Below, piece by piece: positions 18,803 to 24,981 of a stretch of 32,000 nucleotides of DNA (position 1 is the stretch's first letter; each line of letters opens with the position of its first letter). Below the pieces are notes generated by a model. It did no database searches. It was not told the origin of the DNA and saw only the letters and a program-made list of their open reading frames with translations. The DNA is from Haloquadratum walsbyi C23 (GTDB taxonomy: Archaea; Halobacteriota; Halobacteria; Halobacteriales; Haloferacaceae): the NCBI RefSeq assembly GCF_000237865.1, contig NC_017459.1:2760001-2792000 (forward strand), written 5' to 3'. The position numbers were made by a program, and so were the translations under genes.

Positions 18803-19534
18803 TTAGCCTAGTTCTGTAACCACTGCAGCCCCATCGATAAATACGATATCATTTTTTTCAGCGTATGTCTGTGCATCTGTGGGCGCTGTTGCATTCCCAG
18901 TCGCATCATCCAACATTTCACAAACAACAACCGCTGGTGCACAGTCGGCCGCATCGGCAAGTGCAAGTCCTAATTCCGTATGACCTCTTCGATCTGTCAA
19001 TAATTTTGGCGCCCCCCGAAGAACGTTGACGTGTCCAGGCGTTCGAAATTCAGCTGCAAAATCCTCAGCAGTATATTCACCGGCATCTGCTGCTTCGGCA
19101 ACGGTTCCAAGACGATGAATCGTTTGCGCCCGATCATCGTCGGTGATACCGGTGAATGTTTCGCGATGATTTACCGGCAGTGAAAATGAGGATCGGCTAT
19201 CATATCCAAGATCATGATCCGCCGTCGTAGGGTGTTCAATTACATCCTCCAAAAATGGTAACTCAAGCGTTGTTGCAACAGTATCAGACACTGCAGTGCA
19301 AATAAGTCCTCCAGCATCATTACGAAGTCGAGCAATGGCATCTGAATCAATAGCACGGGCAGGATAAATAATATCAGTCTCGCCCTCCCGATCTGTAAAA
19401 TCATGTACAAGTACCGGGTCGCCATCACGAAATGCTGTTACCGCAGCGGTGACAGTTTCGCTCGATTCAATATATCTATCAGTTGTTGTATCCATATTAG
19501 CGGTACTTGGGTTAATATCGGCGTTCGTATCCAT
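18803..19534 (-). CDS. ribB: 3,4-dihydroxy-2-butanone 4-phosphate synthase
   Basis: 243-aa ORF. An alternative start at M14 (19495) is possible. Motifs: GDPVLVHDFTDREGETDIIYPA, GHTELG, VVCEMLDD. Confidence 0.9.
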   Translation of the reverse strand: MDTNADINPSTANMDTTTDRYIESSETVTAAVTAFRDGDPVLVHDFTDREGETDIIYPARAIDSDAIARLRNDAGGLICTAVSDTVATTLELPFLEDVIEHPTTADHDLGYDSRSSFSLPVNHRETFTGITDDDRAQTIHRLGTVAEAADAGEYTAEDFAAEFRTPGHVNVLRGAPKLLTDRRGHTELGLALADAADCAPAVVVCEMLDDATGNATAPTDAQTYAEKNDIVFIDGAAVVTELG

Positions 19535-19623
19535 ATACGTGAAATCGTCGGCTAGGTATCGTTTCTGTATGAGTATTCATTTATTATCTATCATAGTCTG
19601 TGCGTTGTTAAAGTGTAACAATC

Positions 19624-20331
19624 TCATTCTTTCGGCTTCAGTTGCACCGTGATACGCTGCCCATCGGTAAGTTCGAGGCTGTCTCGAAGCCGCTCCGGCG
19701 CAATAACTTCAAGTTGCGTTTCATCGTGATGCGTCCGTTCTGGGACGATGATATGTGCAGCTTCTGCGGTTTGTTCAGCAAGTATAATTTCAGCCGGATA
19801 GCACGTTGCTGGACCAAACGTCCGCTCGTCGTCCTCCCATCCATCGATCTGAATTCCTGTAAGGGATGACACAGCCACTCGTGTTCGTGTACTATCATCA
19901 TCAAGATCAATATTGAGTGTTCCAGGGAATGGCTCATAGCCAAGTCGTTCGCGGAATTGTTTCATATACCCGGACAATGAAATATAGTGACGCCCTTCGC
20001 CCATTCCGCTTGTGACCGTTCCGGTGAGTTCAACAACTGAGGAGTTGTCCCCAAATATTTCCTGATATTGTGTATACTCCTTATGTAGCGCTGTCTCGCC
20101 CGCCTTTGTCAACGAAACCCACTGTCCATCTGTGACGACGTCACGATCAAGATATCCTGCTGCTTCAAGCCGCTGAAGTCGACGTGATGCGGTTTGACTC
20201 GATGCATCGAGTCGGTCGCTGAGCTCTGAACAAGAGATTTTAATCGGCTCTGAGTGTGCCCCCTCTAGGGCAACGAATTTCAGTGCCGCGAGTTCATCAT
20301 GACCAACGGCTGTCGTCGATTCTGCCATCAT
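19624..20331 (-). CDS. ribK: HTH-fused CTP-dependent riboflavin kinase (RbkR-type bifunctional kinase/regulator architecture)
   Basis: Track ORF 19624..20370 trimmed to ATG 20331 (MMAESTT...). N-terminal winged-helix segment (SQTASRRLQRLEAAGYLDR). C-terminal archaeal riboflavin kinase motifs: SGMGEGRHYISL and YEPFPGTLN. Confidence 0.87.
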   Translation of the reverse strand: MMAESTTAVGHDELAALKFVALEGAHSEPIKISCSELSDRLDASSQTASRRLQRLEAAGYLDRDVVTDGQWVSLTKAGETALHKEYTQYQEIFGDNSSVVELTGTVTSGMGEGRHYISLSGYMKQFRERLGYEPFPGTLNIDLDDDSTRTRVAVSSLTGIQIDGWEDDERTFGPATCYPAEIILAEQTAEAAHIIVPERTHHDETQLEVIAPERLRDSLELTDGQRITVQLKPKE

Positions 20332-20623
20332 CGTAATTAGTCTTTGATGCATGTTAAGAATAACGGACATGGAATGCTTTCCAGAATCGATATGTATTAA
20401 TATATTTGTATGTGCAGTCTACATCAGTACTTATCAATACAATCATTGGTCATATCCGAAGCCACGTGCACTTAATCTGGAATATTCCCTTCGGTGTTCT
20501 GTTTCGAATAAAGAGAATCACATTATCAACAACTGGTGTGGAATGAACGAATCATCTCACTCTCCTCAGCGATTCACGCTGCGTTCTTGAACTTGAGGGG
20601 CTTCGATATGCTCTCGCATCATG

Positions 20624-21272
20624 TCGGATTACCTGCTTCTCTGACAGTATTTACAGACGTACAAGGAGAATGCCTCGAGGGTCGACCTCGGGGGTGAATC
20701 CGACAACCCACAGTGCAAATCATTAGATAGACACACTACTCCCTATTAAAGAGCGATGGAGTATACTCACCGCTACCACACTTACCCGACACAAGAGGTA
20801 GCGGAGAGACTGCAATACCACATTGATGTCCATCGCCAAGCGTACAGCTACGCCCTGTCCGTCGTGTAGGTCCGAGTATGACCGTGATGCGAACGCGTCG
20901 TTGAACGCCCTAGAGCGCGGTTTTTCTGAACTATGGGAGTGACCCGAAGACACGTCCGTGGAGGCTGCGCTGCCTATGGATACTCATTCATAGTGATTAG
21001 TTCGAATAATTTCACTGGCGGTGTCGAATGACGCGGGTTCAGCGGCTCCTATCACCGACACGGATAATCACGGCGGTAAAGACTTGCACTAATCACTATC
21101 AGTATCTGCAAAGCGCGTCGCAGAAACGGGAAGCCTCAGGGCTTTGATCTTGATGTTGATATGATCCCGAGGCGATTCATAAGCGGTGTGTCGTGATGAC
21201 GCCTGCCCACGGGAGTTTATTTTACTACACTTCGCTCATCAGATAGTCGGTTCGCTCGCTGAGGGAGGGTGA
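20624..21272 (+). mobile_element. internally deleted IS1341/IS605-type (TnpB) mini-element remnant
   Basis: The left side has a nested inverted repeat TCGGATT/AATCCGA (20624-20630/20697-20703). Inside it is the hairpin CCTCGAGG-GTCGA-CCTCGGGG (20673-20693). The body holds tnpB 5' and 3' coding fragments. A 3' non-coding tail ends in the CACTTCGCTCA...CGGTTCGCTCGCTGAGGG motif. Confidence 0.6.
20756..21134 (+). pseudogene. tnpB remnant: first ~34 codons fused to the C-terminal zinc-finger/tail codons, with frameshifts
   Basis: Hand translation gives MEYTHRYHTYPTQEVAERLQYHIDVHRQAYSYAL. A frame shift then gives CPSCRSEYDRDANASLNALERGFSELWE*, a further shift gives EDTSVEAALPMDTHS*, and later comes SAKRVAETGS. 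These match the conserved N-terminal and C-terminal ends of haloarchaeal IS1341-type TnpB. The RuvC core between them is absent. Confidence 0.6.
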
Positions 21273-21443
21273 ATGGATAGCGCGTTAGTGAACCAGGAAG
21301 TTCTAGAATCGGGTAGAAGACAAAGTGCGTTGAATTATCTGATCACAGGGTACATTCACTGTCAGACAGTATCACAATTATGTAGTAGGTATACGTCTGG
21401 CTTGTTCGGAAAGGCATTTAGTTACCCTTCATAAATGTGAGAT

Positions 21444-23234
21444 ATGTTCAGACCCTTTCGGTCGGAGGTGGAACACGCCGTTGAGTCTGCATTGCAGACA
21501 CTTGCACTCCCGACCGATGACTTGGGGGTGGAGACACCACCTGAGGATGTCCCAGCGACGCTTGCCTCAAGCGTTGCATTTCGTCTTGCAAGATCTGCCA
21601 AGGACTCACCGCCACGCGTGGCAGATGATATTGCTGCTGCTATTGATCTTGAGCCTGATTCTCAGACATATGAGTATATTGACCATGTAGATACGCGTGG
21701 TCCGTACATCAATTTTCACGTCAACGATGCATACTATATGGATACCCTTACCGCTGCTCAGGATCCTGAATACGGACACCTCCCCAATACGGGTCAGTCT
21801 GTTGTTGTCGAGCATACGAGTGCGAACCCAACAGGACCAGTTCATGTTGGACGTGGACGGAATACAATCTTTGGGGACGCCGTTGCTCGATTACTCGAAT
21901 ACAATGGTGACACTGTTGACCGACATTACTATCTCAATGACGCTGGTCGTCAGGTCGGTGTATTTACCTGGGCATATGAGAAATTTGATGCTGATTCACT
22001 TCCCGACCCAGAGCGTGATCGTCCTGATTATGATCTTGTTCGGTATTATCGTCGAGGGAATGAATTCCTTGAGAATGCTGATGCTGATGCCGTCGAATCT
22101 GCTGAGGACGAGATTGCATCAATTATCAATGGTCTTGAGGCAGGCAATACTGAAACGTATGAGCGTGTTCAAACTGTCGTAGACCAGGTCATTGACGGAA
22201 TGCAACAATCATTTGACCGTCTTTCAGCAATATTTGATGAATTTATCAAAGAAACACGGTTTATTCAGAATGGAGATGCTGATGCTGTGGTTGAGCGTCT
22301 TAAATCCGCTGATTGTGCGGTTTATGAGGACGATGCATGGCAGATCGACCTCAGTGCATACGATATTGAAAAAAATCTCGTCTTTCTTCGTTCCGATGGA
22401 ACGACATTGTATACAACACGTGATCTTGCCCATCATGAGTGGAAATTTGACAATTATGACGCTTCAGTGACCATTCTTGGTGAGGATCACAAACTCCAAG
22501 CTGAGCAACTTGATGCAACGCTTCAGATCCTTGGAAATGACACCGATCAGCTCAGACAGCCGTTTTATTCATGGGTTAACCTTCCAGAAGGTGGTATGTC
22601 AACTCGCAAGGGAACTGGTGTTGATCTTGATGACTTACTCGATGAGGCAATCGCTCGTGCCCGCGAGGAAGTACATGATAGACTAGGATCACGTGTTCGC
22701 GATGACTCTCTCTCTAGCGATGATATTGACCGTATTGCCCGGCAGGTCGGCGTTGGTGCCGTCCGATACGATATTGTCTCAAAGCAACCAACCAAAGGAA
22801 TCACATTCGAGTGGGATCGCGCACTTGATTTTGAGGCACAATCTGCACCATATATCCAGTATGTCCATGCACGCTGTTGTGGCATTGAGACAGAGGTTAA
22901 CTCAAACACAGATCTCGATATTGATGCTCTCACGTCCGATTCAATACCTGATATCACAATGCTTCGGACGGATGCCGAACGTGCGCTCCTTCAAGAGATC
23001 GCTCGATTCCCCGCAGTTGTCGAATCAGCAGCAGCGGATCTTGAGCCACATGTCATTGCAACGTTTGCTCGTTCATTTGCTGAACAATTTAATACATTCT
23101 ACCGTGAGTGCTCGGTGTTGAACGCGGAAAGTGAAATCATGACTGCGGCTAGGGTGAGCCTTGTTCGTGCTGCTCGACACACTGTTGCGAATGCGCTTGA
23201 TATCGTCGGGGTTGAGGCACCTCAGTCAATGTAA
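21444..23234 (+). CDS. argS: arginine--tRNA ligase
   Basis: 596-aa ATG ORF with a class-I HIGH region ([17 protein letters not shown]). N-terminal Arg-tRNA-binding and C-terminal DALR-type domain layout. Confidence 0.95.
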
Positions 23235-24916: not shown

Positions 24917-24981
24917 CACGGGTCAACGACCTCACCTCACTTCGCTCACCGCGTCACGCGGTTCCCTCGGTGAGGGTGAGG
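24917..24981 (+). repeat. solo copy of the IS1341-type 3'-end motif, forming an extended hairpin
   Basis: CACGGG-N15-CACTTCGCTCA-N10-CGGTTCCCTCGGTGAGGG parallels 21208-21265 (CACGGG-N14-CACTTCGCTCA-N9-CGGTTCGCTCGCTGAGGG). An 11-bp stem with one bulge pairs 24930-24940 with 24970-24981. It encloses an inner CCGCG-TCA-CGCGG hairpin. Confidence 0.6.

Follow-up and report, generated by a model that had tools for sequence, protein, structure and literature searches.

An internally deleted IS1341-type element, split by a small mobile repeat, upstream of argS in Haloquadratum walsbyi C23

Transposons of the IS605 type in Haloquadratum walsbyi have been surveyed in detail. About 90 tnpB copies were reported, most of them disrupted, and 15 of 15 tnpA genes were disrupted (Dyall-Smith et al., 2011; PMC3119063). 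Core deletions were found to turn these transposons into short palindrome-associated elements, internal deletions to leave terminal coding remnants only, and SMR-A repeats to insert preferentially into such core-deleted elements. The SMR-A small mobile repeats, among them HqIRS55 with 54 copies in strain C23, were described as making no target duplication and as being mobilised in an enigmatic way (PMC3119063). On the RNA side, functional non-coding RNAs of Halobacterium overlap tnpB genes in sense at their 3′ ends (PMC4615843), and PATEs often encode guide RNAs whose TnpB partner would have to come from another locus (PMC10055086, 2023).

The stretch analyzed here (the window) comprised 32,000 nucleotides of the C23 genome (C1:2760001-2792000; all positions without a contig name are window positions). 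The locus of interest occupied an intergenic region flanked on one side by argS (21444-23234) and on the other by a minus-strand gene (19624-20370) for a CTP-dependent riboflavin kinase fused to an HTH domain; Pfam confirmed both genes. The original prediction had proposed a tnpB deletion derivative at 20624-21272 that kept both ends and the whole 3′ RNA-coding portion, and a derivative of this kind was found. Window 20655-21180 is an internally deleted IS1341-type (TnpB-only, IS200/IS605) element, 415 bp long when a repeat inserted in it is left out. The reading that this copy is dead and drifting, and was later split by HqIRS55, was judged highly probable. It is a known kind of relic at an annotated locus: its class has been on record since 2011, PATEs that carry guide RNAs were treated in a 2023 paper, and the orthologous locus of strain HBSQ001 already bears the locus tag HQ3238B. 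All parts of the element described below lie on the plus strand, the two copies of a duplicated trinucleotide being listed without strand.

When 60 further genomes from the family were searched at the DNA level, numerous elements matched both the left and the right part of the mini-element, with about 0.95 kb between the two matches. Full-length relatives sharing both ends occur in many genera of the family; the failure to find any would have spoken against the original prediction. As had been proposed there, alignment to full-length copies, the 1348-bp relatives in other genera, defined both ends and the internal deletion. One such relative (L032, genome G031) is an intact 1348-bp element encoding a 408-aa protein with PF01385 and PF07282. 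Window 20645-20851 matched it at 81% over 210 nt, and the window from 20856 onward at 79% over 182 nt.

Family boundaries were set by two pairs of copies with unrelated flanks, one pair in G031 and one in G011, the members of each pair being 99.9% identical. In these four full-length copies, from two other genera, the flanks differed up to one common TTTAC, after which the left-end sequence was common to all. The same conserved target, or TAM-like, pentanucleotide abuts the left end in the window (20650-20654). The left end and 5′ leader of the mini-element (20655-20755) lie within the 81% match and include the 8-bp hairpin that had been predicted at 20673-20693. This hairpin is present and is the homologue of the subterminal hairpin in the full-length relatives, with the architecture of their left ends; the same architecture was also found in other left ends of the C23 genome.

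The right end required correction. It had been placed at 21272, about 170 nt upstream of argS, but the true end is 21180, and the argS start lies 263 nt downstream of it. At 21180 similarity stopped to a second copy of the element, to a 3′ fragment at C1:2598850-2599060 and to the full-length relatives, and the covariance model of the RNA scaffold described below ended at the same base. The terminus reads ...GATTCAT, the last base being changed to T from the ...GATTCAC of the relatives. A subterminal hairpin at the right end pairs 21133-21141 with 21167-21174; its loop is expanded, and its stem contains one mismatch. The flanks, 20624-20654 and 21181-21272, had no similarity to any relative and are ordinary flank. 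The stretch 21208-21265 was considered as part of the mini-element and rejected: homology to all relatives ends at 21180, and the motif there had only three loose matches in the genome. This loose motif (ACTTCGCTCA..GGTTC.CTCG.TGAGG) was found at three places only: window 21225-21272, window 24925-24975 and C1:2886817. At 21225-21272 the ACTTCGCTCA motif lies outside the mini-element, where conservation between strains is 99.6%.

By its ends the mini-element belongs to the IS1341 group: a subterminal hairpin lies directly 3′ of a conserved short target (TTTAC) on the left, and a hairpin and GATTCA(C/T) terminus are found on the right, with a stem mismatch, the expanded loop and the last base as defects. 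The intact tnpB of that group (PF01385 and PF07282) is lacking, codons 33-348 being absent. Neither terminal inverted repeats nor a direct repeat in the flanks, and hence no target duplication, were found for the mini-element, so that it is not a classical MITE; the inserted HqIRS55 has both. The structure is that of the PATEs and remnants of PMC3119063: near-terminal palindromes, no terminal inverted repeats, no target duplication, a length too short for a transposase, a core deletion and targeting by SMR-A. Unlike the 52-bp terminal-only PATEs of that study, it keeps longer coding remnants (32 and 60 codons), and its family differs from the published PATEs in comprising two loci only.

The start of tnpB was retained at 20756-20851 in the ORF listing. 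About 34 codons had been predicted to remain; the N-terminus is present, and the conserved match covers codons 1-32, the peptide read from 20756 being 84% identical by tblastn to residues 1-32 of an intact 408-aa TnpB of another genus. The BLAST alignment breaks at 20852-20855, where a 4-nt filler (GCCC) links codons 32 and 349. The full-length element has 948 bp more at this point, equal to codons 33-348 (316 codons), in line with the catalytic middle having been called missing. Lost in this way were the RuvC region covered by PF01385 and the greater part of the zinc ribbon; the last CxxC and the DRD motif remain. No match to PF01385 was found at the mini-element locus in a Pfam profile search. 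PF07282 matched weakly and over positions 42-59 only, at 20.8 bits and under the 26.3-bit cut-off.

The C-terminal pieces (CPSC, DRDANA, ERGFSEL, VEAALPMDT and SAKRVAETGS) correspond to residues 349-408 of the 408-aa TnpB. By translation, the first part (20856-20990, residues 349 onward) contains the last CxxC, DRDANA and ...PMDTHS as well as one in-frame TGA; the second (21102-21180) contains VSAKRVAETGS..., together with the 3′ half of the scaffold and the right end. All of these motifs were present as predicted, but rather than being spread over different frames they share a single one, which is resumed across the inserted repeat. They look scattered because of the one in-frame TGA and a 111-bp insertion; this length is divisible by three, so that the C-terminal fragments to the left and right of HqIRS55 stay in one frame. 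The in-frame TGA is specific to C23 and is TGG in environmental alleles. A frameshift is also carried at the deletion junction. A conserved micro-ORF in the N-terminal 37 codons was considered and rejected, because the paralogue already terminates at codon 20 and strains differ in the stop codon.

The intact 1348-bp IS1341-type elements of G031 and G011 thus resemble the remnant in left end, TTTAC, N- and C-terminus, scaffold and right end, at 76-81% DNA identity. In contrast to them, the remnant has lost codons 33-348, which cover RuvC-I/II and the bulk of the zinc ribbon, and has an extra in-frame stop, a junction frameshift, an inserted repeat and an expanded right-end loop.

A second locus, C1:1482833-1483142, matched window 20747-20990 and 21102-21160 at 84-91%. 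It has the identical junction, including the 4-nt filler, and no HqIRS55, and contains an in-frame stop within the N-terminal codons. No left end was recognizable there in a global alignment, similarity upstream of position -9 from the ATG being unconvincing. A junction-spanning pattern was found in six public metagenome contigs, three for each of the two loci, and no further same-junction loci were found in the C23 genome and the public metagenome contigs. The same junction at the second locus indicates that the derivative was copied once, and the event was old, because the two copies are only 84-91% identical. The shortened element appears from these comparisons to have been copied once, long ago, in a family that stopped at two loci. 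Of the MITE family that had been anticipated from copies with the same deletion, there was one second locus, and that copy was without a left end.

No intact parent element was found in the C23 genome. The fragment at C1:2598850-2599060 is the closest 3′ fragment (87-94%) but a solo 3′ end, and C1:2952510-2953430 is the closest long copy but N-terminally truncated; both were rejected as parents.

It is improbable that the mini-element is a non-autonomous element (PATE or MITE) that can still be mobilized in trans today. Hairpin and target motif at the left are undamaged, most of the right-end hairpin survives, the same-junction copy means that the shortened form propagated once, and strain-specific IS605-type insertions occur despite disrupted tnpA genes (PMC3119063). 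Yet the family has two loci only in the genome and metagenomes, the divergence of the copies points to old copying, the second copy is without a left end, and the right end has a substituted terminal base. No intact TnpA was found in C23, where all matches to Y1 transposases are short fragments or contain internal stops.

The retained 3′ portion was predicted to overlap an RNA-coding region. Across seven full-length relatives, roughly the final 125 nt hardly varied, even at third codon positions, whereas third positions vary further upstream. RNAalifold predicted six helices in the 3′ 132 nt of the full-length relatives. A covariance model was built from these relatives and 24 matches from several genera and the C23 genome were aligned; in this alignment, which is fitted to the model, 93.7% of cells were paired and 28 of 41 pairs had compensatory changes, a result reached by none of 500 shuffles, with slid controls at 30-45% paired. 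The retained 3′ stretch of about 130 nt is, according to these structural predictions, the homologue of an omega-RNA-type scaffold ending at the right end. Homology thus extends to the TnpB omega RNA (reRNA) and the sotRNAs of Halobacterium salinarum (PMC4615843; PMC10055086), and in the intact relatives the omega RNA scaffold runs over the end of tnpB as far as the right end of the element. The scaffold starts about 75 nt downstream of the deletion junction, and therefore the deletion spares the RNA-coding part. The earlier statement that an omega RNA or reRNA overlaps the retained portion was consequently upheld by a covariation-supported six-helix scaffold at that place.

In the window, the 5′ half of this scaffold (20918-20990) comprises helices 1-4 and the 5′ arm of helix 5, as placed by the consensus structure of the full-length relatives. 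The window scaffold scored 26 bits with the covariance model, vs. 90-141 bits for uninterrupted paralogues. With HqIRS55 ignored, 36 of the 41 consensus pairs were kept. Helix 2 had lost three pairs, helix 6 had a mismatch, and the helix 6 loop had gained about 20 nt. Compared with omega RNA systems, the remnant differs in a scaffold that is interrupted by 111 nt and partly eroded, in having no cognate protein in its genome and in having given no sign of expression. An Rfam scan of 19500-22500 with E up to 1 gave no match.

The loop of the right-end hairpin was expanded by 18-40 nt of TTGAT-like repeats in all three Haloquadratum scaffold copies (window 21142-21166, C1:2598850-2599060 and C1:1482833-1483142); it measures 5 nt in relatives from other genera. 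One of the other genera (L042) likewise has a large insert within a loop of the scaffold.

The 108-bp repeat that splits the remnant (20991-21098) has perfect 12-bp inverted termini and is bounded by TCA on both sides (20988-20990 and 21099-21101). It was identified as HqIRS55 from BLAST, which returned 56 copies in the C23 genome; two of these, 248609-248718 and 314812-314916 of the genome, coincide with entries in Table S5 of PMC3119063. The insert is a typical SMR-A copy in its 12-bp perfect termini and in its position within an IS605-type element, outside an intact ORF. The target is present as a single copy in the paralogues and all full-length relatives, and therefore HqIRS55 inserted into the remnant.

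Flank comparison of the repeat copies showed identical trinucleotides in 46 of 48 scorable copies: TGA/TGA in 33 and TCA/TCA in 13, never mixed. HqIRS55 makes a 3-bp TSA (TGA or TCA) target duplication, contrary to the absence of duplication stated in PMC3119063, and the strain-specific net insert lengths of 111 (108 + 3) in Table S5 of that paper agree with a 3-bp duplication. The target resembled YTSAG, and a further example of a copy is C1:1481249-1481361. Duplications of 3 bp with the pattern TNA are typical of the IS1031 group of the IS5 family and of PIF/Harbinger-type transposases.

With respect to the scaffold, the HqIRS55 insertion point is the junction between the loop and the 3′ arm of helix 5, and the duplicated TCA restores the closing pair of that helix. 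The helix 5 and helix 6 loops carry natural insertions in other copies. HqIRS55 itself has a predicted fold as a long hairpin. The insertion is predicted to alter the RNA fold grossly; physical destruction of the fold goes beyond what the data support, because the insertion is in a loop and the repeat is self-folding.

Another insertion has affected the same locus in other strains. A 1486-bp ISHwa19 is inserted in HBSQ001 at C23 2780659-2780663 (Table S5, PMC3119063). The same insertion was found in two metagenome contigs, and a third contig breaks at that point. In the two contigs the ISHwa19-type element is about 1.48 kb long (L046 517-1997; L050 652-2130) and lies on the opposite strand at window 20658/20659, directly 3′ of GTAC, so that its insertion point is inside the left end of the remnant. 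C23 has the empty site, with one base differing next to the insertion point. The ISHwa19-type element encodes an intact 412-aa TnpB, 51% identical to that of the parent family, and its scaffold scored 111 bits with the covariance model. Elements like ISHwa19 have the same architecture as the remnant; ISHwa19 was nevertheless rejected as its parent on account of the opposite strand, the position 3′ of GTAC and a TnpB that is only 51% identical. Its insertion into the remnant is an instance of the pattern of mobile elements targeting mobile elements described in PMC3119063.

Partner proteins were sought in the C23 genome, and no intact cognate TnpB was found. The best same-family TnpB covers residues 102-408 and is without residues 1-101; the other fragments are shorter or at most 51% identical, and intact TnpBs of distant families are about 24% identical. 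With neither an intact TnpA nor an intact cognate TnpB, the remnant in C23 can neither move nor guide a nuclease. The original prediction had further suggested that the sequence beyond the right end might match targets elsewhere. The 16 nt after the right end, the would-be guide, had no TTTAC-adjacent match elsewhere in the genome, and that suggestion was not borne out.

These results bear on the idea of a guide-RNA-only locus, at which an omega-type RNA would still be made, the repeat would be tolerated as an extended hairpin arm and TnpB would act in trans. The full scaffold-coding region is kept, with 36 of 41 pairs surviving when the repeat is ignored, HqIRS55 sits in a loop and folds on itself, PATEs encoding guide RNAs used in trans have been discussed (PMC10055086), and in other strains an intact, 51%-identical TnpB with a related scaffold (111 bits) adjoins the remnant. 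C23, however, has neither an intact same-family TnpB nor the adjoining ISHwa19-type element; mutations affect the last base of the right end, a helix 6 pair and helix 2; no other segment diverges as fast as the tail; the guide has no TTTAC-adjacent match anywhere in the genome; and expression in HBSQ001 is near zero. Taken together, the idea has very little probability. Just as doubtful is a chimeric omega-type small RNA in which HqIRS55 would form an extra arm on helix 5, working in trans with a related TnpB (e.g., of the ISHwa19 type) or as a regulatory sRNA. Were it true, the locus would be a natural guide-only locus, and SMR-A insertions would remodel guide RNAs instead of simply killing them.

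Three environmental contigs covered the locus, and their identity to the window sequence was compared by segment. The mini-element (left end, N- and C-terminal parts) was 96.9-97.7% identical and the scaffold tail with the right end 91-92%. Identity was 96.8% in unconstrained intergenic DNA on the other side, 98.2-99.6% in the riboflavin-kinase-like gene, 99.4-99.6% in argS and 99.6% in the 263-nt argS leader. The second copy was the most divergent segment of its own locus (98.4% and an indel, vs. 99.3-100% for its flanks). No sign of purifying selection was seen on either copy in the environmental-allele comparison, and the divergence of the remnant is neutral or faster. The tail in the window and the remnant at the second locus both diverge more than nearby non-coding DNA, which may point to a locally higher mutation rate or to gene conversion between paralogous transposon ends.

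Expression data were available from HBSQ001. Table S5 of PMC3119063 equates C23 2780664 with HBSQ001 2572758, and therefore HQ3238B (HBSQ001 2572850-2573234) corresponds to window 20756-21140. In the published HBSQ001 transcriptome, a strain other than C23 and a library that excluded fragments below about 150-200 nt and would miss a small RNA, HQ3238B was at 0.26 TPM vs. 17.5 TPM for argS and a mean of 22.4.

A domesticated regulatory sRNA or cis-element, in which a transposon-derived transcript or structure affects argS or other genes, has precedent in the functional sense-overlapping ncRNAs at the 3′ end of tnpB in Halobacterium (PMC4615843). The remnant is also fixed upstream of argS in all sampled populations (the two strains of PMC3119063 and the three metagenome contigs), although neutral hitch-hiking next to an essential gene explains fixation equally well. 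Against domestication, divergence is at least that of unconstrained intergenic DNA while the adjoining argS leader is 99.6% conserved, no Rfam match was obtained, HQ3238B is almost silent in the long-insert RNA-seq of HBSQ001, and the paralogous copy decays at the same accelerated pace. Such a role is hard to credit on this evidence. The original prediction of a guide-RNA-only or domesticated sRNA locus was accordingly left unsupported, given the missing cognate TnpB and TnpA, the interrupted and eroded scaffold, neutral-or-faster divergence, the lack of a TAM-adjacent target and the near-zero signal of HQ3238B.

The history of the dead, deleted copy can be reconstructed as follows. An element of about 1.35 kb would have inserted 3′ of TTTAC, between the riboflavin-kinase-like gene and argS. 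A single 948-bp deletion would then have fused codon 32 to codon 349, removing the RuvC-I/II core and most of the zinc ribbon and leaving both ends, the last CxxC and DRD motif and the guide-RNA scaffold region of about 130 nt. The shortened form would have been copied once to the second locus, presumably mobilized in trans by a then-active TnpA. HqIRS55, presumably at a later time, inserted into the helix 5 loop of the scaffold, duplicating TCA, and since then the remnant has drifted like non-coding DNA. Anatomy, homology, the shared junction, the insertion and population drift were observed directly; the order of these steps and the past mobilization are a reconstruction. The mini-element is one fossil among about 80-100 mostly broken tnpB copies in C23 and has little significance alone. 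Its modest value is that of a cleanly dissected example, in which the deletion spares exactly the scaffold and both ends and the repeat lands in a scaffold hairpin loop.

The repeat may be of wider use, as its 3-bp TSA duplication and its presence in other genera may help to trace the transposase responsible. No longer, autonomous, transposase-bearing element with HqIRS55 termini was found in C23, and the other genera had only copies of about 110 bp. In the genus of the window, no relatives of HqIRS55 were found in six other genomes searched. Close relatives were found in other genera, in genomes G011 (C1:1416010-1416122; L051), G072 and G013 (L054). Genome G072 contained about 38 HqIRS55-like copies, among them L052 987-1096 and L053.
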